This document shows positions 764-36,909 of a DNA stretch of 60,539 bases, piece after piece (positions within the stretch are counted from its first letter, which is position 1; each line of letters opens with the position of its first letter). Position numbers and translations under genes: made by a program. Origin of the DNA: a virus; IMG/VR virus record IMGVR_UViG_3300028048_000007, positions 1-60,539 of that record; one strand, 5' to 3'. The notes under the pieces were generated by a model. The model made no database searches. It was not told the DNA's origin and worked only from the letters and a program-made list of their open reading frames with translations.

Positions 764-2794
764 TTACTCTAACCAAATCTTATCAACGGCAATGTAATTA
801 TTTCCACCAGAAACGGTGCTTGCCCAATAATCAGAAGTGGTTACAGAATACTGTGCATCCTTTAAATACAAAGTTGCAACGTTACCTCTATAACCAAATC
901 CAAGTTTTACAGAGTTAATTCCTTTGTTTAAAAAGTTTGTTTCCAAATCTGCCGCAATAACTTTTACATAACTATCATTGTTAGCCAACTTAAAACGAAC
1001 TTTTAAACTCTTGTAGCCTTCAACATCAATACCATTAACCGAACTAAAACCACAAGCATTTGTTGAATAATAAGAACACTGTATATAACTGCTTTGGAAA
1101 ACAGCAGAATTGGTTATACCAGACATTCTATTTGATAACTCAACGTATTGAGTTCCATTTTCATATAAAACCATTTCTGTACTTGGTTCTGGCTCTACCA
1201 CATCTTCTCTTCCATAAAATTGAAGTGTAAAAATCACCATACGTCTATTTGTTTCAAGTTGTGCAGTAGAGAATAATCTAAACGAACTCTTTATTGTGTT
1301 GAAAATTTTTGTAACACTTGCAGTGCCTTGATTAGCAAGTGTAATGTTAAATGCTTCACTCAAATCTGTAACATCAAATGAAAACCTATCAGTGCTACCT
1401 TGAACCTTGAACGTATAATGAGATTCTGCTGTCGTATTTGTTCCTATAAGTGCCTTACACATACAAATTCTTGTTTGTTCTGTAAATTCATACCCGACAT
1501 TGGCATCTAATACTTCGGCATTTGTTCTAAAAGAAGTTGAATCGTTACCGTCAAAAGCGTAATAATAAGGATTTTCACTTACAGCACCATAACCGAAACA
1601 CTCACCACTCGGAGTAGTATTACTTGTCATCTTCGGAGTTTTAACATTAAGCACTGACTCAAAGTATTCGCTATTGCAGATTGCTTCAAGCCATGTTGTA
1701 TCGGATAACAAAGTATTAGCACAGTAGTTATTTTGTCCGATATACTGCATTGCAGTTAAGTTGTCACAAAGGTTTTCAGAATAAAATTGTATAGTCCAAA
1801 ATCCGTTTCGGGTTACAGCACTCGCATTTGTTAAATAAATTCGCCAATATTCATGTGCATTTACTTCTGATACAGTTTGTGAAAACGGAAAAGCGTACTC
1901 GCTTTGTGTGACAGGAGTGCCATTACTTTCATTTATCGTAAATGTGTCAGAATCATTCCATGTAACTCCATCGTCAGAATATTGAATCTTCTCTGTCCTA
2001 ACTGCTCCTGTAGCCGCATTGAGCATTGCAGTTCCTTTGACTTTAGCTACCCTCTGTGCAGTCGCAAACTGATAGCCAAAACCCGAACCAGATGTTAATT
2101 GAGCACACCTTGAACAAGTAGTATCATCTCCGTCAAACACCAAATAAGCATCACCTTGGAAATATTGCCAAACAGTACAAACTCCGCTAGGTGTATTATT
2201 TGAAGTCATAACAGGCACAAGCGGAACTCCAACCCATGTCTTTGACCTAACCATGTAATCTACTGCGTTATTGGAATTAATAAGGGCAAGCAGTGTATCG
2301 GTATCTGCAAGAACCTCTGCAAGAGTGGTATAAGACTTATCATTTATTCCTGCACACTTTAACCATATCTGAATATCATCTGTAGGAAGGGCAGTTTTAC
2401 CATCCACTACTTCACTTAACTCTACCAAAAATTCATCCGTCACATCTACAGATTTTTGATAAACAGTTCCTTGATATGTAGTTGAAGCTACATAGACACC
2501 CTTTTGCTGTACATCAAAAGTAGCATTACCTGTATTATCAAATGTTGTTGTTCCCAACACAACATCATCTTTGCTTATTGTAATTGTGTTACCAAACAAA
2601 TTAGAATCTTCTGTAAAAATATGTATCGTATAACCAGAAGCAGAAGGAGTATAAGTACCTGTCAACAAAGCACCTGTCGCATCATGGAATGTTTTTCCTT
2701 GTAAAACATCTGATGCAACAACGGTATCTTCAGACAAATCCATTATCGTCTGATTACCATAAATAACCTTATTAGCATAAGGGTTGTTAGCCAT
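764..2794 (-). CDS. Tail fibre / receptor-binding protein with two tandem discoidin (F5/8 type C)-like carbohydrate-binding modules
   Basis: 676-aa ORF. N-terminus MANNPYANKV..HDATGALLTGT is paralogous to 2896..3498. Internal duplication: ..MTSNNTPSG..FDGDD..IQFYS (about 1778-2215) and ..MTSNTTPSG..FDGND..LQFYG (about 1211-1639). Confidence 0.8.
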   Translation of the reverse strand: MANNPYANKVIYGNQTIMDLSEDTVVASDVLQGKTFHDATGALLTGTYTPSASGYTIHIFTEDSNLFGNTITISKDDVVLGTTTFDNTGNATFDVQQKGVYVASTTYQGTVYQKSVDVTDEFLVELSEVVDGKTALPTDDIQIWLKCAGINDKSYTTLAEVLADTDTLLALINSNNAVDYMVRSKTWVGVPLVPVMTSNNTPSGVCTVWQYFQGDAYLVFDGDDTTCSRCAQLTSGSGFGYQFATAQRVAKVKGTAMLNAATGAVRTEKIQYSDDGVTWNDSDTFTINESNGTPVTQSEYAFPFSQTVSEVNAHEYWRIYLTNASAVTRNGFWTIQFYSENLCDNLTAMQYIGQNNYCANTLLSDTTWLEAICNSEYFESVLNVKTPKMTSNTTPSGECFGYGAVSENPYYYAFDGNDSTSFRTNAEVLDANVGYEFTEQTRICMCKALIGTNTTAESHYTFKVQGSTDRFSFDVTDLSEAFNITLANQGTASVTKIFNTIKSSFRLFSTAQLETNRRMVIFTLQFYGREDVVEPEPSTEMVLYENGTQYVELSNRMSGITNSAVFQSSYIQCSYYSTNACGFSSVNGIDVEGYKSLKVRFKLANNDSYVKVIAADLETNFLNKGINSVKLGFGYRGNVATLYLKDAQYSVTTSDYWASTVSGGNNYIAVDKIWLE

Positions 2795-2856
2795 AATAAA
2801 ATCTCCTTATCATTTGTGTATTCACATTTGGTGTCACAAATCTTATTAACTACAAT

Positions 2857-2876
2857 GGGGAGGTAAACACCTCCCC
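2857..2876. terminator. GC-rich hairpin GGGGAGGT-aaac-ACCTCCCC between the two fibre genes
   Basis: Perfect 8-bp stem. The T-run (ccatttttattttt) is on the plus side and an A-run on the other, so it is stronger as a plus-strand (antisense-blocking) terminator than for the coding strand. Confidence 0.5.
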
Positions 2877-2895
2877 ACCATTTTTATTTTTAAAT

Positions 2896-3498
2896 TTATG
2901 AAGAAGGTGCTACATCACCAATAGTAACAGTTTTTCCTCCTGCTGAATTATCTGTTTCAACATAAGAAATTGCATTAACTGTTACCTGTGACAAATAATC
3001 ATACCCTGCATCGGGAAGAATTGTTTGTGCTGTGGTATAAGGCGTTGCTGTTTTTGCCTGTGCCGTAACACCCTCACCTGTATAAGTTCCTGTTACTCCA
3101 AGAATGTTTACACCATCCTTAATGTTACTTGCAATAATCTTTGCCTGTTCAGTTGCATCAATCTGAACATGTCCAGAACCATCATGGTAACCTTGCGGTA
3201 CTGTTACCTGTTGTGCAACAGCAGAAATGTCTTCGTCAATAGCACCACGATTAGGCATTGTTCCTGTTAACAAAGTACCTCTTGCATGTGCCGTTTTACC
3301 ATTTAAAATTTCTCCAACAAGTGCTGTGTCCTGTGAAGTATCACTATCTTTTGTAGAAGTACCTGTGATAATAGCACCTGTCGCATCATGTGCTGTTACA
3401 CCGTTTGCAAGGTCTGATGGTGTAATAGTATCAGCCGTAAGGTCTATTTTTACTTCATTTCCGAACACAACCTTGTTTACATATTGATTGTTAGCCAT
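2896..3498 (-). CDS. Tail fibre protein, short paralogue (200 aa) with three G(K/V)T-AH-x-G-x-(I/L)TGT repeats
   Basis: ORF track 2896..3519. Start moved to MANNQYVNKV (ATG 3496-3498) behind GGAGGA. N-terminal ~47 aa align with the 764..2794 product. Confidence 0.75.
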   Translation of the reverse strand: MANNQYVNKVVFGNEVKIDLTADTITPSDLANGVTAHDATGAIITGTSTKDSDTSQDTALVGEILNGKTAHARGTLLTGTMPNRGAIDEDISAVAQQVTVPQGYHDGSGHVQIDATEQAKIIASNIKDGVNILGVTGTYTGEGVTAQAKTATPYTTAQTILPDAGYDYLSQVTVNAISYVETDNSAGGKTVTIGDVAPSS

Positions 3499-3502
3499 TC
3501 TA

Positions 3503-3754
3503 TCATCCTCCAATAACAAAAGTTACACCTTTCACATTACTCGTTTCATAATAAGGTATTTCCTCCACTGTTATGTTTTGCTTAACAACAGTGTTTTGAG
3601 TATCAAGTATTGTTGACTCTCTTACTTTTGGAGTAACATTTATTTGACCAGTGTAAACAGGGTATTCACTTCCACCACCACCCTCTCTTACTGTAAGTGA
3701 AATATGTGTTTCCTCTCTTACAACAAGTGGGATATGCACTTCAAGGGGTTGCAT
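3503..3754 (-). CDS. Hypothetical protein (83 aa)
   Basis: ORF track; tight same-strand packing between terminase and fibre genes. Confidence 0.6.
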   Translation of the reverse strand: MQPLEVHIPLVVREETHISLTVREGGGGSEYPVYTGQINVTPKVRESTILDTQNTVVKQNITVEEIPYYETSNVKGVTFVIGG

Positions 3755-3755
3755 A

Positions 3756-4061
3756 TTAAATCACCCCTTCCTTTAATATCTTTTCAACATCAATCTTTGC
3801 AATGGTAGAAGCAAAGGCAAGATTATTTGTTGTCCTAAACCTAACCTGTACATCACAAGTACCATTAAATAGCTTCAAGGTGTCTTCCTGTGTCAACGTT
3901 ACTATAACCGTTTTGGTTTCGGAATTAACCCTAACCTCACTTAATTCTTTTGTGATTTCAACCATAGGACTCTTAAATGTCACCCAAAGTTCAGCAAGGT
4001 CATCAAGAGGTAACTCCGTTTCCAAGTCCAAAAATATAGTTGGGGTTGTTCCTCTAAACAT
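3756..4061 (-). CDS. Hypothetical beta-rich protein (101 aa), probably virion-associated
   Basis: ORF track. MFRGTTPT..LTQEDTLKL.. pattern that I recall next to fibre genes in Firmicute phages (memory only). Confidence 0.6.
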   Translation of the reverse strand: MFRGTTPTIFLDLETELPLDDLAELWVTFKSPMVEITKELSEVRVNSETKTVIVTLTQEDTLKLFNGTCDVQVRFRTTNNLAFASTIAKIDVEKILKEGVI

Positions 4062-27797: not shown

Positions 27798-27832
27798 TTT
27801 AAACTCCTTTTAGGCTTGTTTATTATTACGAA

Positions 27833-27904
27833 CAACCCCTGTAGGACTCGAACCTACAATAATCAGAACCAAAATCTGATGCCTTACCATTTGGCGAAGG
27901 GGCT
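27833..27904 (-). tRNA. tRNA-Gln (anticodon UUG)
   Basis: Hand fold: acceptor AGCCCCT/AGGGGTT (one G.U), D arm GCC-AAATGGTAA-GGC, anticodon arm TCAGA-TTTTGGT-TCTGA, T arm GTAGG-TTCGAGT-CCTAC, discriminator G, no encoded CCA. Confidence 0.85.
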
Positions 27905-27929
27905 ATAAGGGAGATTGCTCCCCCTATTG

Positions 27930-29957: not shown

Positions 29958-30602
29958 TTACCTCTTAACCACAACATCGTTTACTGTTATATCGTCAAAG
30001 ATTACTGGAATTGTTCTCTTAAACTCATCCAATATAACACAAGCAACCTCTCTCATTTGTGGATGTGCCTTTTCAGAAGTTCTCAATTTAAAGAAAAGCC
30101 TCCACTCACGAAGATTCATCGTCATTACAATTTCTGTTTTCAAACTGTTGGGAAGAACACTTCTTGCTTCTTGTGGTTTAGCACCAATGGCTATTAAACT
30201 GTTATAGGTGTCCTCAACAGTAGCCATGTTGTTTTTCCAAATTTCATACTCATCACTATCCTCATCCCAGAAACAAGGTTTAATGAATGTAAGTTCCCCT
30301 CCGAACTTATCCTTTGAATAGTTGCAGTATCTTGTACTCTCTTGGCTATAACTTGCAAGTCTATGTCTTACAATTTCATGAGAAACACCTCTGTCACAAA
30401 TAACTCTTACCGATACTTTCTCATGTTCGATTACTGACTCATGACCACTCTTAAGAATATTTGTTACAAAAGCAATTGAAGATTCCTCTGTTATTTTATC
30501 CTCACTCTTGTAACAAACCCTTCCAATCTTTTCAATCCTTTTTAACATTTCTCTTCCATTTACATCATCCAAAATTTCAACCCTTGGATTAATTATTTTC
30601 AT
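29958..30602 (-). CDS. thyX: Flavin-dependent thymidylate synthase ThyX
   Basis: ThyX signature ..VRHRLASYSQESTRY.. (RHRxxSxxxxSxR). Confidence 0.85.
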   Translation of the reverse strand: MKIINPRVEILDDVNGREMLKRIEKIGRVCYKSEDKITEESSIAFVTNILKSGHESVIEHEKVSVRVICDRGVSHEIVRHRLASYSQESTRYCNYSKDKFGGELTFIKPCFWDEDSDEYEIWKNNMATVEDTYNSLIAIGAKPQEARSVLPNSLKTEIVMTMNLREWRLFFKLRTSEKAHPQMREVACVILDEFKRTIPVIFDDITVNDVVVKR

Positions 30603-31488: not shown

Positions 31489-33045
31489 TTAATTTACCTC
31501 TCTACATAATAAAGTGCTGTTATATTTCGTTACTCTACTTATGTATTCCTTTTTATCGAATGTAGCCGCACCACATTCTTTTAACTTTGATAACACACCA
31601 ATGTTTACTGCACTTCCTTTAAAGTGTGTTCTATCGTAGAAATTATCATATGAAGTAAATATACCGTTCTTCTTTCTTTCTTCTACAATTTGAAGTGCCG
31701 CTTTTTCACCGATACCTTTTATATCAGAAAGACCTTGTTGTAAACAATATTCTCCTTCAACCTTTCTTATTCTTGTTTTAACATCAGAATAATTTATATG
31801 AGGAAGAAATACAACGTTTCCTGCTTTTGCCGCTAACACGCAACACTTATAATAAGTATCGTCATTTGGTGCATACTTTAATTTACCAAACCAGAAATGC
31901 AACGGATAATGTACCTTGTAAAACATTTCCTCTACAGCAAGTAGTGCATAACCAACTGCATGACCTTTGTTAAAACCATACATGTCGGTTGCTGAACTAA
32001 ATATCTGCTCCGCTTCATCTCGTTTAAAACCATTTGACATAGCACCCTTTACAAATATGTCATGAAGTTCTTTCTTTGTCTGATTAAACTTCTCACGCTT
32101 CTCTGGTGACATTGCTTTTGAACCATCCATTTTCATAACCTTATCTGCATCTGTCCATTCCATACCACCAAGATAAACACATATCTGTTGTACTTGCTCT
32201 TGATAAATAATTGTTCCGTATGTTTCTTTTGTATAATCATAATACAATAATTCTTTTGCAGTTTCGATATTGCTCTTATTATCTGCGTACTGTTCGGGCA
32301 TGTGTGTTGATAATGCGGCAGGTCTATTCATTGCATTTGCGGCTACAACATCATTGAAGTCTGTACAGTTAATATCAACCAACATGTTTCTAACAGTTTT
32401 CTTATCAAACTGAAATACGCCTTGCGTATCTCCTTTATGAAATGCTTCAAGCACATCTTTATCTTCAATTGCTTTGTCATAGTCAACAGTTACACCTGTA
32501 AGTTCTCTTAACTCACCAATCTCTTCCATTGTTTGAAGTCCAAGAATGTCAAACTTGATAACTCCAATTGCTTCAATGTCATTCAAATCATAATTGGTGT
32601 AAACGTTTCCTTCTTTATCCATTTTCAAAGCTGTATAATCAAGTATATCTCCACCTGTTACAGCAACACCTGCGGCATGTGTACCAATATATCTTACTTT
32701 CTGATACAACTTACTAAAATGAATAAATATGTTATCATACTCTTTGTTATACATCTGAATCTCTTTGTCTTCCAACATTGCATCCAAATCCAAATTGGAA
32801 TCAGAATCAAGATATTTATTACAAAGTGATTTAATCTGTTTTATTGTTCTTTCATTACTTGCTTTCTGTTCACCATCAACAGTTTTATCAGTAGGCAATC
32901 CACAAACCTTTGCTAAATCATTTATAAGGTTGTCTACTTTATACAGACCATAAGAAACTATTCTTGCTGTATGTCCTTCATATTTATTTATGATATACTC
33001 GATTACTTCATGTCTTCTTGCTGTTTCAAAATCAAGGTCAATATC
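31489..33045 (-). CDS. dnaE: DNA polymerase III alpha subunit (DnaE-type), exon 2
   Basis: Begins DIDLDFETARRHEVIEYI.. (the catalytic Asp motif) and continues with ..GTHAAGVAV.., ..KFDILGLQT.. The ATG listed at 33046-33048 is interpreted as the last intron codon (ends in G). Confidence 0.8.
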   Translation of the reverse strand, partial: DIDLDFETARRHEVIEYIINKYEGHTARIVSYGLYKVDNLINDLAKVCGLPTDKTVDGEQKASNERTIKQIKSLCNKYLDSDSNLDLDAMLEDKEIQMYNKEYDNIFIHFSKLYQKVRYIGTHAAGVAVTGGDILDYTALKMDKEGNVYTNYDLNDIEAIGVIKFDILGLQTMEEIGELRELTGVTVDYDKAIEDKDVLEAFHKGDTQGVFQFDKKTVRNMLVDINCTDFNDVVAANAMNRPAALSTHMPEQYADNKSNIETAKELLYYDYTKETYGTIIYQEQVQQICVYLGGMEWTDADKVMKMDGSKAMSPEKREKFNQTKKELHDIFVKGAMSNGFKRDEAEQIFSSATDMYGFNKGHAVGYALLAVEEMFYKVHYPLHFWFGKLKYAPNDDTYYKCCVLAAKAGNVVFLPHINYSDVKTRIRKVEGEYCLQQGLSDIKGIGEKAALQIVEERKKNGIFTSYDNFYDRTHFKGSAVNIGVLSKLKECGAATFDKKEYISRVTKYNSTLLCREVN

Positions 33046-33820
33046 CATTCATACCCTCGGTTTCCCGATATTTATTAGGGGATTAGACTATCTCTTACAG
33101 AATCAAATTCTGTTGTGGCACTTCCGCTGTGTGCTTATCTCACAGCGTACTTCCTTACGGAATAGTCGTTACATTTTTCGCAATTCAACTTCTTTGTTTT
33201 TGTAATGTTTAACAAGCATAGAATAACTACAACCATATTTCTTTGAAGCATACTTACTTGCATCTGTTACGCTCCAAAAAGAATTAATAAATTCACCTTT
33301 GTAATACAAATCAATAACATTATAATTTCTAAAAGGTGTATCTTTTCTTCGTTCATAACCTTTATTAATGTTATCTTTTTGTGTTACCCAACGGAGATTT
33401 TTATAATAGTTATTCTCTTTATTTCCGTCAATGTGGTCAACAACAAGTTCTTCTTCATAGCCTTCACAAAACAACATAGCAACCGCCCTGTGAATTGCAA
33501 TTCTTTTCACTACACCTTCATCAGAACACTTAATATACAAATATCCTTGGTTACTTTTGTAAGGTGTCAAATTTCTTCCTGTTTTCTTGTTGTAAACATC
33601 ACCACATTCATTAACGCAAATGTTTTTAAAATTTGGAATTACCTTAAACATACAAAAACTCCTTGCGACTTAACTCGGTATTACCAACTATCCATTTCTG
33701 GACTTTAGGTTTTCTTACGAAGCGTATTCGTGCATATAGCCTTATTTAACTTCTACCGATAGCATAGCATTACGCTACACACCTGTTAGCACAGTTCACC
33801 ACATACGCCCAATATTGTTT
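33046..33820 (-). mobile_element. Group I intron (775 nt) in dnaE carrying an HNH homing-endonuclease ORF
   Basis: Exon 1 ends ..FRRFLRKDKKKLP (last nt U) and exon 2 starts DIDLDF; joined they parallel E. coli FERFLNPERVSMPDFDVDF. Intron ends in G. GGGCG at intron nt 12-16 can pair with exon UGCCU (U.G at the splice site). GUAA-tetraloop hairpins in both non-coding flanks. Confidence 0.75.
33169..33651 (-). CDS. HNH homing endonuclease (HNH_3 type), intron-encoded
   Basis: ..HRAVAMLF..VVDHIDGNKENNYYKNLRWVTQKDNINKG.. Confidence 0.85.
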   Translation of the reverse strand: MFKVIPNFKNICVNECGDVYNKKTGRNLTPYKSNQGYLYIKCSDEGVVKRIAIHRAVAMLFCEGYEEELVVDHIDGNKENNYYKNLRWVTQKDNINKGYERRKDTPFRNYNVIDLYYKGEFINSFWSVTDASKYASKKYGCSYSMLVKHYKNKEVELRKM

Positions 33821-35002
33821 AGGCAACTTCTTCTTATCTTTTCTTAAGAATCTACGGAAGTCCATACCGAACATTAAACTGTCTATTTCGGTTATTCCCA
33901 ACGCATAAGCAACAAGACAGTTACAACAACTACCTCTGCCAGGACCAACTGTAATTCCCTGTTCCTTTGCCCAGTTTACGTAGTCTGCAACAATAAGGAA
34001 GTAATCATGAAAACCAAGGGTTTCAATTACATCATATTCCTGTTTAATACGGTCTATATATTCTTTCTTCCACTTACCTCTTCTTTCAAGACCTTCTTTT
34101 ATCTGTTTCTTTAATAGTGACTTACTATCCTTTGAATACTTGGGTAAGATTTCTTCAAAGTCAGCAAACATATCATCAACACATTTATCTTCAATCTCTT
34201 TTAAGTTTCTGATACATTGTTTACCGAATTTCTTGCACATCTCTTCTGTCTTAAAATCAACAGAGTGCATGTTAACAAATCGTGTGTAAAGTTCTTTGTC
34301 TGTAGGCATATATCTTTCTTTATATGTCCTTGCAATTTCATCTACATCATGATTTGCTATTTCGTGCATCTTTAAATAAGATTCAAAATCATCTTTCCTA
34401 CCTCTATGAGAATCAGAAGTAAGAATACATTTAATACCAAGTTCTCTTGACAATTCAATCAGAGTTTTATTTACAAGTTGCTGTAAACCTTTTTCAGAAA
34501 CTTTATAAGGCTGTAATTCTATATAAAAGTCATCAGCAAAAATGCTTTTCATTTTCTTTAAATATTTTCTTGCTTTATCTATGTCACCCTTAACAATACA
34601 TTGTGAACTGTAAGAAGCAACACAAGCAGAAGTAACAATCAAACCCTCATGGAACTTTTCTAACAACTCAAATGTCCAAATAGGATTGTAATACTTCTGT
34701 TTTTCTCCCTCTGTCTGTAAAGCATTTAAGTTGTGATAGCCTTTTGGATTCTTTGCAAACACACACAAATGATAACCTCTGTGCTGTTCAATATATTTTG
34801 GTAAGAAATAACCTTCAACTCCCAATATTGGTTTTATTCCAACTTCCATACATGCTTTGTAATGCTGTACCAAGTTGTTTGTATTTCCGTGGTCGGATAT
34901 ACCTAAAGCGGTATGACCTAACTCTTTTGCTAATTTTGCCAACTCTTTAGGTTTACCAAAACCATCATACGTACTACATTCTGTATGTCGGTGTAAATCC
35001 AT
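33821..35002 (-). CDS. dnaE: DNA polymerase III alpha subunit (DnaE-type), exon 1 (PHP domain and start of the palm)
   Basis: MDLHRHTECSTYDGFG..LGISDHGN..GVEGYF.. PHP motifs. The 16 codons after ..KKKLP in the ORF track are read as intron. Confidence 0.8.
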
Positions 35003-35913: not shown

Positions 35914-36909
35914 TTACTCCCAATCATCATCCTCTTCGTCATCATCTTCATCTTCCCAATCATCATGAGCCTTGTCATTTTCTTTAAGAAGATTGATATA
36001 ATACTTTTCTGACTTCTTGGGTTGTGCTTCTATATCTCTTTCCTTGCAAAGTTTATACAATTCCTTTGCAGACATTGAAGAATAATCTACCTCATCATCT
36101 TCTTCTCCATCTTCCCAATCATCATTGTCATCATCACTGCTGTTCTCTTCGTCATACTCTTTCAACAGTTCAATGTAATAATCCTTGGGATTCTTGGGTT
36201 CTGCTTCAATCTCTCTCTCTTCACAAAGTTTGTAAAGTTCCTTTGCAGACATTTCGTTGTAGTCAACATCTGTATCAACTTCTCCCCAAGGAAGTTCCTT
36301 TTCAGCAGACTTCTTTTTGGTTGAAGATGACTTCTTCTTCATCTTGGGGGAATCATCTTCATCCTCATCATCATCTCCACCAAGAAGATGTGAATGTTCA
36401 TCGGGATATGCCTTATCAAGAAGTTCAAGAAATGCTTTCTTTGAAAAAGGCTTTGCTTTTGCGTTCTTAAAACTATTCTTATCCATAGGCATAGCAGACA
36501 TTGTTTTATCCTTCTGCTTTCCTTGGCAACTGATAACATAATCTCTATCGGTAATTGTTCCGTAAGTTTCATATGCGGCAGTAATTGCTCCAAGAGGTGA
36601 ACAGTTATTCATGGCATACATGAAAATCTTAACTTCTTTTGCTTCATAATCCCAAACAGACCAAGCATAAAGAGTTCTTGTTCTCAAACCTTCCTCATCA
36701 CAATAAGGGCAACTCTTACCGAACATCTCTCTACAAGGAACATTGATGTTTGCTTCAAAGTTGTCGTGGAAAACAACTTCAATTCCATCATCCAAATCCT
36801 GTAAAAATCTTACTCTTCTTTTCTCTCCGTCCTTACAGAAGAAGAACTTTGTTTTACTGCCACCTGTTTTCTGTGCATCCTGTTTAATTTTGTCTAACAA
36901 ACCTGCCAT
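35914..36909 (-). CDS. Putative single-stranded DNA-binding protein (Zn-finger OB-type) with two C-terminal HeH/SAP-like repeats and an acidic tail ..EEDDDWE
   Basis: ..VPCREMFGKSCPYCDEEG.., position among replication genes, acidic C-terminus. Tandem DY(N/S)xMSAKELYKLC(E/K)ER(E/D)IEA(E/Q)PK..YYI(E/N)LLKE repeats. Confidence 0.5.
   Translation of the reverse strand: MAGLLDKIKQDAQKTGGSKTKFFFCKDGEKRRVRFLQDLDDGIEVVFHDNFEANINVPCREMFGKSCPYCDEEGLRTRTLYAWSVWDYEAKEVKIFMYAMNNCSPLGAITAAYETYGTITDRDYVISCQGKQKDKTMSAMPMDKNSFKNAKAKPFSKKAFLELLDKAYPDEHSHLLGGDDDEDEDDSPKMKKKSSSTKKKSAEKELPWGEVDTDVDYNEMSAKELYKLCEEREIEAEPKNPKDYYIELLKEYDEENSSDDDNDDWEDGEEDDEVDYSSMSAKELYKLCKERDIEAQPKKSEKYYINLLKENDKAHDDWEDEDDDEEDDDWE

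Follow-up and report, generated by a model that had tools for sequence, protein, structure and literature searches.

A mobile SPO1-type group I intron very probably splits a phage DnaE-type DNA polymerase gene directly before its first catalytic aspartate codon

We have analysed a 60,539-nucleotide (nt) stretch of viral DNA (IMG/VR record IMGVR_UViG_3300028048_000007, positions 1 to 60,539, referred to throughout as the window) in which the gene for a DnaE-type alpha subunit of DNA polymerase III (Pol III alpha) is divided into two open reading frames (ORFs) by an insert of 775 nt containing an HNH endonuclease gene. Judged from sequence comparison, it is very probable that the insert is a mobile group I intron of the type present in phage SPO1, and that it carries an HNH homing endonuclease. 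The parts of the locus are given below, protein lengths being in amino acids (aa).

33821..35002, minus strand: exon 1 of the predicted DnaE-type Pol III alpha gene, 394 codons; PHP domain and first part of the palm; ends ..KKLP with CCU
33046..33820, minus strand: predicted group I intron, 775 nt, from AAACAAUAUUGGGCG... to ...GGGUAUGAAUG, with the terminal G at 33046; structure from covariation
33169..33651, minus strand: predicted HNH homing-endonuclease gene, 160 aa, I-HmuI-like; Pfam HNH_3 E 3e-10; in the P6 loop
31489..33045, minus strand: exon 2 of the predicted Pol III alpha gene, 518 codons plus stop; starts DIDLDF; rest of the palm, fingers and HhH

The polymerase halves lie in two neighbouring ORFs, A (35002..33770, minus strand, 410 aa) and B (33048..31489, minus strand, 519 aa), with complementary Pfam matches. 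ORF A contains a PHP domain (E 4e-38) and matches positions 2-102 of the DNA_pol3_alpha profile at aa 296-394, the CCT codon of Pro394 ending at 33821. ORF B matches positions 103-260 from its aa 2, an aspartate whose GAT codon starts at 33045, followed by finger and HHH_6 domains, the profile being cut cleanly at 102|103 between the two halves. Joining 35002..33821 to 33045..31489 produces a 912-aa protein with the junction ..RKDKKKLP|DIDLDFETARR.., the interruption falling between the codons of Pro394 and Asp395, and the ligated exons read ..AAGTTGCCT|GATATTGAC.. at the nucleotide level. This junction aligns without a gap to the intron-less polymerases of Agathobaculum phage AB434P2, a single 910-aa coding sequence (CDS) of 57.7% identity, and MT837767; uninterrupted relatives read ..KKFP|DIDLDF.. 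across the site, which is AAGTTTCCT|GATATTGATCTGGAT in AB434P2. A preliminary description of this DNA had placed the end of exon 1 at 33821 and the start of exon 2 at 33045, limits that prove exact against both the intron-less alleles and the Pfam profile, and the comparison with intron-less dnaE alleles that it proposed yields read-through in AB434P2 and MT837767. The joined segment matches T. aquaticus Pol III alpha (2HPI), 2HNH and other solved structures at E 1e-28 to 1e-33, and the gapless alignment with 2HPI (..ERVSMP|DIDTDF..) puts the break directly before residue 463, which we take to be the first catalytic aspartate, in agreement with the earlier placement of the insert at the P|DxDxDF catalytic motif. 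By alignment, Asp395 thus corresponds to the first catalytic aspartate of the solved polymerases, and the DIDLDF with which exon 2 starts is predicted to hold the first two. As a whole, 35002..31489 is predicted to encode one DnaE-type Pol III alpha comprising a PHP domain, a palm that bears the PDxDxDF aspartates, fingers and HhH.

Interruption at this site recurs in other genomes. Pattern scans using the intron 5' end as a DNA pattern collected 41 viral or metagenomic loci (32 distinct sequences, designated by L numbers) in which DnaE is interrupted between ..P and D.D.D by 233-1182 nt; some copies contain an ORF, and those that lack one (233-358 nt) break the gene at the identical base. The host polymerases are diverse, with 26-69% aa identity to that of the window, and the ribozyme sequences are 60-88% identical at the nucleotide level. 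A terminal G precedes the exon-2 Asp codon GAY in 32/32 distinct copies, a count in which the G was required by the extraction rule; seven copies inspected by eye before the rule came into use likewise have a terminal G. The intron is missing from one polymerase with 58% identity to that of the window and occurs in others with 49% and 69%. Cellular genomes scanned with the intron pattern gave 36 matches, all of them chance, with neither core motif nor DnaE context, a weak negative given the narrow pattern.

Among named phages, a more sensitive search found the HNH gene and 3' ribozyme in Clostridium phages CS266P1-P4, with the polymerase split likewise. In CS266P1 (L001, OP172775, 1553-5121) the polymerase halves are annotated as two hypothetical proteins, with neither an intron nor a joined CDS. 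Bacillus phage Jayan (L003, PQ299153, 1044-4451) carries a compact intron at that site too; its record lists two 'DNA polymerase' CDSs and no intron, and a 'hypothetical protein' CDS overlaps the ribozyme. Insertion site and ribozyme in CS266P1-P4 and Jayan are thus the same as in the window, but separate CDSs are annotated in place of an intron. CS266P1-4 share an orthologous HNH gene (59% aa identity), whereas the Jayan copy is without an endonuclease gene.

Boundaries of the window intron were set by the gapless protein alignment with AB434P2 and MT837767, and the ribozyme parts assigned within them, in 5' to 3' order, are these.

33806..33826, minus strand: P1, exon UUGCCU (33826..33821) with internal guide GGGCG (33810..33806); U.G at the splice site; loop AAACAAUAUU
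33811..33816, minus strand: P10 guide AAUAUU, complementary to the first six exon-2 bases, GAUAUU (33045..33040)
33797..33803, minus strand: P3 5' strand UGUGGUG, directly after P1; partner 33119..33114
33783..33794, minus strand: hairpin X (CUGU GCUA ACAG), between P3-5' and P4; also in the SPO1 and Romulus introns
33762..33780, minus strand: hairpin Y (GUGUAGC GUAAU GCUAUGC), then J3/4 (UA)
33675..33759, minus strand: P4, UCGGU 33759..33755 with ACCGA 33679..33675; encloses P5 and the P5 extension
33753..33749 with 33723..33719, minus strand: P5, GAAGU with GCUUC; 98.8% paired, covarying
33702..33691, minus strand: P5-extension hairpin UCCA GAAA UGGA; 97% paired
33173..33674, minus strand: P6, GUU 33674..33672 with AAU 33175..33173; its loop houses the endonuclease ORF
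33086..33172, minus strand: catalytic 3' domain, comprising J6/7 GUAAC, P7, P7.1, P7.2, GAAGUG, the P3 3' strand and P8
33167..33162 with 33091..33086, minus strand: P7, GACUAU with AUAGUC; invariant, complementary
33161..33152, minus strand: P7.1 (UCC-GUAA-GGA); 85% paired, many compensatory changes
33147..33125, minus strand: P7.2 with loop AGAUAAGCA; 93% paired, many compensatory changes
33119..33114, minus strand: P3 3' strand GCCACA, preceded by GAAGUG
33113..33097, minus strand: P8; covaries in the RNAalifold register
33046..33081, minus strand: P9 (CCC../..GGG) with inner hairpin UCGG GAAA CCGA and tail UAUGAAUG to the terminal G; covariation

This structure was evaluated on an alignment, A1, of 20 distinct copies from which the interior of the P6 loop alone was removed, one structure being drawn on the window row; pairing counts were controlled by 500 shuffles and by sliding the partners by 1-3 columns. 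For 75 pairs in 17 helices, 90.3% of cells are paired, compared with 71.6 +/- 0.8% in the shuffles (0/500 as high) and 36-44% in the slid controls. Both sides have changed in 47 of the 75 pairs against 36.1 in the shuffles (0/500), and the covariation score is 0.469 against 0.146 (0/500 as high), with P1, P3, P5, P6, P7.1, P7.2, P9 and P9a all covarying. RNAalifold, run without a supplied structure, recovers P1, an 8-base-pair P3, Y, P4, P6, P7.1, P7.2, P8, P9 and P9a, 38 of its 61 pairs being compensatory, and the minimum free energy fold of the window sequence alone gives the same helices. The minimum free energy of the ORF-trimmed intron, -84.3 kcal/mol, is below that of its shuffles (-69.0 +/- 4.7; z -3.2, 0/100 as low). 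Two earlier assignments were discarded: P8 in the register of the MAFFT alignment was only 46% paired and is restored one column over, in the RNAalifold register, and reading the 5' hairpins as P2/P2.1 with P3-5' beside J3/4 is ruled out by covariation, which puts P3-5' right after P1 and the hairpins later.

Individual helices change in step with their partners. In P3 the strand right after P1 pairs with the strand right after GAAGYG, at 98.8% with at most four pair types per column, as GUGG/CCAC in the window, CUCUG/CAGAG in L209, CACUCG/CGAGUG in CS266P1 and UUGUUG/CAACAA in L019, and the helix is found independently by RNAalifold and by the single-sequence fold. P3 and P7 cross to form a pseudoknot, which is characteristic of group I introns, and P8 lies between P3' and P7'. 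In P1 the U.G and two C-G pairs are invariant in 20/20 copies, whereas position -4 is G-C in 17, C-G in two and A-U in one, changing with the exon codon, and position -5 is U-A, U.G or C-G. The features previously cited as group I hallmarks, an exon 1 ending in U, an intron ending in G and a P1 of GGGCG with UGCCU containing a U.G, are all present, the P1 pairing moreover covarying. P10 is paired in 96.7% of cells, both strands being nearly invariant and without covariation. Hairpin X covaries, for example as CAUU/AAUG, CCUU/AAGG and CCCU/AGGG, and hairpin Y is 97.8% paired with changes on both sides in 5/7 pairs. The two GUAA-capped hairpins picked out earlier are real and covarying, being Y (UAGC-GUAAU-GCUA, 33780..33762) and P7.1 (UCC-GUAA-GGA, 33161..33152). 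P4 is 100% paired, its sole compensatory change (A-U to U-A) sitting in the window copy; P6 is 95% paired, with variants UU/AA, CC/GG, CU/AG, UC/GA and CG/CG; P9 is 96.5% paired and P9a 100%, with four covarying pairs. Between the helices lie invariant single-stranded blocks: AAACAAUAUUGGG, GUGAAC, GGUGUG, UGCUAAC, AAUACCG, GUAACGACUA, AGAUAAGCA, GAAGYG and GAKAUAGUCU.

With respect to subgroup, the window intron has no P2 between P1 and P3, and the stretch from the P3 5' strand to J3/4-P4 is occupied by X and Y. IA2 is defined in the Michel and Westhof scheme by P7.1 and P7.2 between P7-5' and P3-3'; these helices are present here, but the canonical IA2-like 5' order P1-(P2)-P3-J3/4-P4 is not. 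By its predicted structure the intron is a P2-less member of the SPO1 type with P7.1/P7.2 as in IA2-like phage introns.

Relatedness to established ribozymes was examined with a covariance model, R1, of the 3' domain (J6/7 to P7'), trained on DnaE-site copies alone (alignment A2). R1 has a sole match in the window (33083-33175, 84.7 bits), and its scan of the window revealed no second intron of the SPO1-type DnaE-site kind. Outside its training set it finds the Jayan intron (62.3 bits), intron 2 of Twort orf142, matched along the entire model (38.3 bits, E 7e-5) and with all P7, P7.1 and P7.2 pairs standard, and the polymerase intron of Romulus (E 0.007); it does not span the SPO1 domain because of the SPO1 ORF. 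Homology of the 3' catalytic domain to that of Twort orf142 intron 2 is supported by these matches. In the 5' half, the order P3-UGAAC-X-GUGU-Y-GCUAAC-P4 recurs in the Romulus family-A polymerase intron, Jayan and SPO1, and since the X/Y order is common to all three, this arrangement belongs to an established, spliced lineage. The original assignment to group I thus gains from compensatory changes over 20 copies and from homology to Twort and SPO1.

Likeness to the SPO1 intron (gene 31, encoding I-HmuI) extends through much of the ribozyme. The two introns share GCUAAC-P4, GCCAAG..GGU (P6), GAGUA and P7.2, the common blocks GCAACGACUAU and AGAUAUAGUC, a J6/7-P7 of the form G(C/U)AACGACUAU, GGAAGYG (GGAAGCG in SPO1) followed by the P3 3' strand, and the order P3(5')-UGAAC-hairpin X-GUGU-hairpin Y-GCUAAC-P4, and both reside in the gene for a replicative DNA polymerase. 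They differ in that SPO1 has a P2 hairpin between P1 and P3, absent from the window intron, and in that the endonuclease ORF occupies the P8 loop in SPO1 but the P6 loop in the window. The host enzymes differ as well, that of SPO1, annotated simply 'DNA polymerase', being one which we take to be of family A, whereas that of the window is DnaE-type (family C). The Twort orf142 introns, a crystallised IA2-type ribozyme, resemble the window intron in their 3' half, both having P7.1/P7.2 between P7 and P3' and GAUAUAGUCU as P7'. The J6/7-P7-P7.1 segments, GCAACGACUAUUCCGAUAGGAAGUA in Twort and GUAACGACUAUUCCGUAAGGAAGUA in the window, are nearly identical, Twort intron 2 differing at 2/25 positions, and the P4'-P6 segments (AAUCCUGAGCUAAG and AAUACCGAGUUAAG, respectively) are alike. 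The Twort introns have the canonical 5' half P1-P2-P3-J3/4-P4, no X/Y hairpins and no ORF, in each of which the window intron differs. The T4 td intron with I-TevI, another phage group I intron of IA2 type, likewise has P7.1/P7.2 and, in the P6 loop, a free-standing endonuclease ORF; its likeness to the window intron is one of architecture, the endonuclease family (GIY-YIG) and host gene being different. Group I introns with HNH endonucleases are well known in phage DNA polymerase genes, including those of SPO1, Bastille, Twort-like and T7-like phages. Our literature search found dnaE described as an intein host and did not find a group I intron in dnaE. What is new here is the DnaE (family C) host gene and the insertion site for a known kind of mobile element.

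The preliminary description had also recognised the free-standing HNH_3 ORF at 33169..33651, an assignment upheld by the Pfam match and by the closest solved structure, I-HmuI (PDB 1U3E), at E 1e-20 over aa 12-100. The catalytic motif appears intact, DH..N..N being conserved in the alignment to 1U3E. A Shine-Dalgarno sequence, AAGGAG, lies at 33664..33659 and the UAA stop codon of the ORF is inside J6/7. The P6 loop contains HNH_3 matches in the window, CS266P1, L019 and L222, can hold a more distant HNH_3 gene, and is empty in several copies. GIY-YIG matches (Pfam) occupy the P6 loop of L193 and L084, the latter also with NUMOD3, and L023 resembles L084 by eye; the occurrence of HNH and GIY-YIG genes in one loop fits repeated invasion of the ribozyme scaffold by endonuclease genes. 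This variety, together with the presence and absence of the intron, fits a mobile ribozyme scaffold with gain and loss by homing.

Combined, these features lead us to propose the following scheme, in which splicing, its dependence on GTP and homing are what we infer. The region would be transcribed as one pre-mRNA and the intron would fold into a group I ribozyme, with a core of the P3/P7 pseudoknot, P4-P6, P8 and P9 plus P7.1/P7.2 and hairpins X and Y. P1 would form between the guide GGGCG and UGCCU at the end of exon 1, placing a U.G at the cleavage site, and P10 between the neighbouring AAUAUU and GAUAUU at the start of exon 2. An external guanosine would then attack after the U at 33821, and the freed 3'-OH of exon 1 after the terminal G at 33046, joining CCU to GAU to give ..KKLP-DIDLDF... 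The polymerase would be functional only once spliced, as the preliminary description held. The HNH product may nick or cut the intron-less dnaE of co-infecting relatives near the codon boundary, by analogy with I-HmuI, I-BasI and I-TwoI, repair after cleavage copying the intron into the intron-less allele; its specificity and homing are predicted from I-HmuI-type enzymes.

Several results weigh against this scheme. The check proposed at the outset, a search with the Rfam model RF00028, failed, an outcome that the preliminary description had listed as a refutation: the window has no match at the gathering score, a search of the 1-kb region relaxed to E<=10 gave none either, and RF00028 matched neither the CS266P1, Romulus and Jayan loci nor three ORF-less copies. 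The last three bases of the window intron, AUG, are in frame with exon 2 and have GAGGG upstream, so that the second half could formally be translated on its own. A 2025 study reported that some Bastillevirinae introns are spliced in infected cells only and not in vitro (PMC11878797), a precedent on which strict self-splicing of the window intron cannot be assumed. Finally, P7 (GACUA/UAGUC) and P10 are nearly invariant, so that covariation speaks neither for nor against these two pairings.

The RF00028 result is qualified by its controls. The three Twort orf142 introns, annotated as group I introns in the Twort record, score 101, 97 (intron 2) and 64 bits, which rules out a general blindness of the model to phage introns. 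The SPO1 polymerase intron, whose record is annotated 'contains intron', gives only a partial match of 25.6 bits against a gathering score of 50, yet it served as the positive control for self-splicing in the 2025 study (PMC11878797). The blindness is specific to the SPO1-type lineage, for which the sensitivity of RF00028 is inadequate; the miss of the window intron is probably explained by its 5' topology, with no P2 and with X and Y after P3-5'. Because the SPO1 intron itself obtains 25.6 bits, the missing match is not a valid refutation for this lineage; the negative is a real counter-result which the SPO1 control weakens without removing.

Alternatively, the insert could be a group I intron that no longer self-splices, either decaying or dependent on phage or host factors, the polymerase being made inefficiently or in vivo only. 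A parallel is offered by the several Bastillevirinae introns for which splicing was reported in infected cells and not in vitro (PMC11878797), and the window intron lacks the P2 which SPO1 has. However, the window copy retains all core helices, its HNH ORF and the two exons are open, and the wide occurrence of compact copies without P2 speaks for functional selection. We regard this alternative as very unlikely.

Also highly improbable is a naturally split dnaE, in which the halves would be separately translated, assembling subunits and the intervening DNA a free-standing HNH cassette, with no splicing. Gene callers do give two ORFs, the second starting at the in-frame AUG formed by the last three intron bases, and relatives are annotated as two CDSs (hypothetical proteins in CS266P1, 'DNA polymerase' in Jayan). 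However, the in-frame start is not conserved, other copies ending in AAUAG, AAAAG, GUAG, AUAAG or AUCGG, and the ORF-less copies of 233-358 nt interrupt the same base, showing that the interruption is not an endonuclease cassette. Moreover, the ORF is flanked by a conserved, covarying ribozyme whose guide tracks changes in the exon-1 sequence, and the break sits inside the palm, immediately before the first catalytic Asp. DnaE genes are well-known intein hosts, and 'fractured genes' whose halves are separated by an endonuclease have been described (PMC2677866), but both an intein and a fractured gene of this kind, in which split inteins would flank the homing endonuclease, are excluded here by the reading frames. 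As stated in the preliminary description, the 775 nt have their own stops; the exon-1 frame ends after 16 codons of the insert. The first residue of exon 2 is that of the junction itself, which leaves no space for intein halves, and Pfam found no intein or Hint domain.

Returning to the interrupted polymerase gene, reading it as one gene with a mobile SPO1-type intron has consequences for annotation, as the polymerase is otherwise called as two truncated genes, and the CS266P1 and Jayan records show missing intron annotation. Covariance-model screens undercount phage introns because RF00028 misses the tested copies and scores SPO1 below threshold; the alignment and structure from the DnaE-site copies could seed a better covariance model. 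DnaE (family C) joins the DNA polymerases known as group I intron targets, with the most constrained site, just before the catalytic aspartates. One ribozyme with different endonuclease families would make a clean test case for endonuclease turnover and for possible competition between phages mediated by the intron. It is conceivable, although on balance doubtful, that the copies represent a large, essentially unannotated family of SPO1-type introns, all at the first-catalytic-Asp codon of phage DnaE and invisible to RF00028, with an endonuclease that possibly acts also as a weapon against the polymerase gene of intron-less co-infecting relatives. This putative family may span gut, environmental and large-genome phage contigs, with HNH and GIY-YIG genes swapped in one loop. 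The PhiPA3 intron endonuclease, reported to act as such a weapon (PMC11620839), provides a precedent.

Part of the intron has a wider distribution. In a megablast search of the region, only approximately 60 nt at the intron 3' end (window ~33037-33107) matched, in 199 records of Herelleviridae-type phages of Staphylococcus, Listeria, Enterococcus, Bacillus, Lactobacillus and Brochothrix at 88-95% identity. This level of identity applies to the P9 module UAAUCCCCUAAUAAAUAUCGGGAAACCGAGGGUAU when the gut-phage window intron is compared with introns in unrelated genes of Staphylococcus, Listeria, Enterococcus and Bacillus Herelleviridae and is far above that of the rest of the ribozyme, a hint that modules have been exchanged or that a tertiary contact is under strong constraint. 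At L135 only 9 nt (AAAUAAAG) separate P7' (GAUAUAGUCC) from the 3' splice site, with no P9, unlike all other copies.

Other sites are occupied in some genomes. In L014, L017 and L026 the core motif GAUAUAGUCC recurs ~700 nt downstream of the DnaE-site intron and points to a further intron within that polymerase gene. A related DnaE in L005 (Dulem virus 36, PP511521) is interrupted C-terminally, after ~aa 762, by ~1.1 kb (2766-3914) holding a 266-aa ORF with a LAGLIDADG_3 match; R1 has no match there. Probably this insert, too, is an intron, occupying a second site within the DnaE gene family. R1 matches were also obtained in L092 (9580-9667 and 6546-6636; 44.5 and 41.6 bits) and, more weakly, in L089 (7718-7806). 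In L089 and at one L092 site the intron 5' end AAACARUAUUGGG follows non-DnaE exons, which places the lineage in further genes of these viral contigs.

Elsewhere in the window, a single tRNA gene, tRNA-Gln (anticodon UUG), was found on the minus strand at 27832-27905 (Rfam tRNA model, 61.7 bits). A few genes downstream of the polymerase, the ORF at 29958-30602 (minus strand) resembles, by eye, a flavin-dependent thymidylate synthase, with a ThyX-like RHR..S motif region. A 331-aa ORF (35914-36909, minus strand), situated directly upstream of the polymerase operon, contains very acidic D/E runs and two near-identical repeats of the 'MSAKELYKLCEEREIEA..P..YYI.LL' type.

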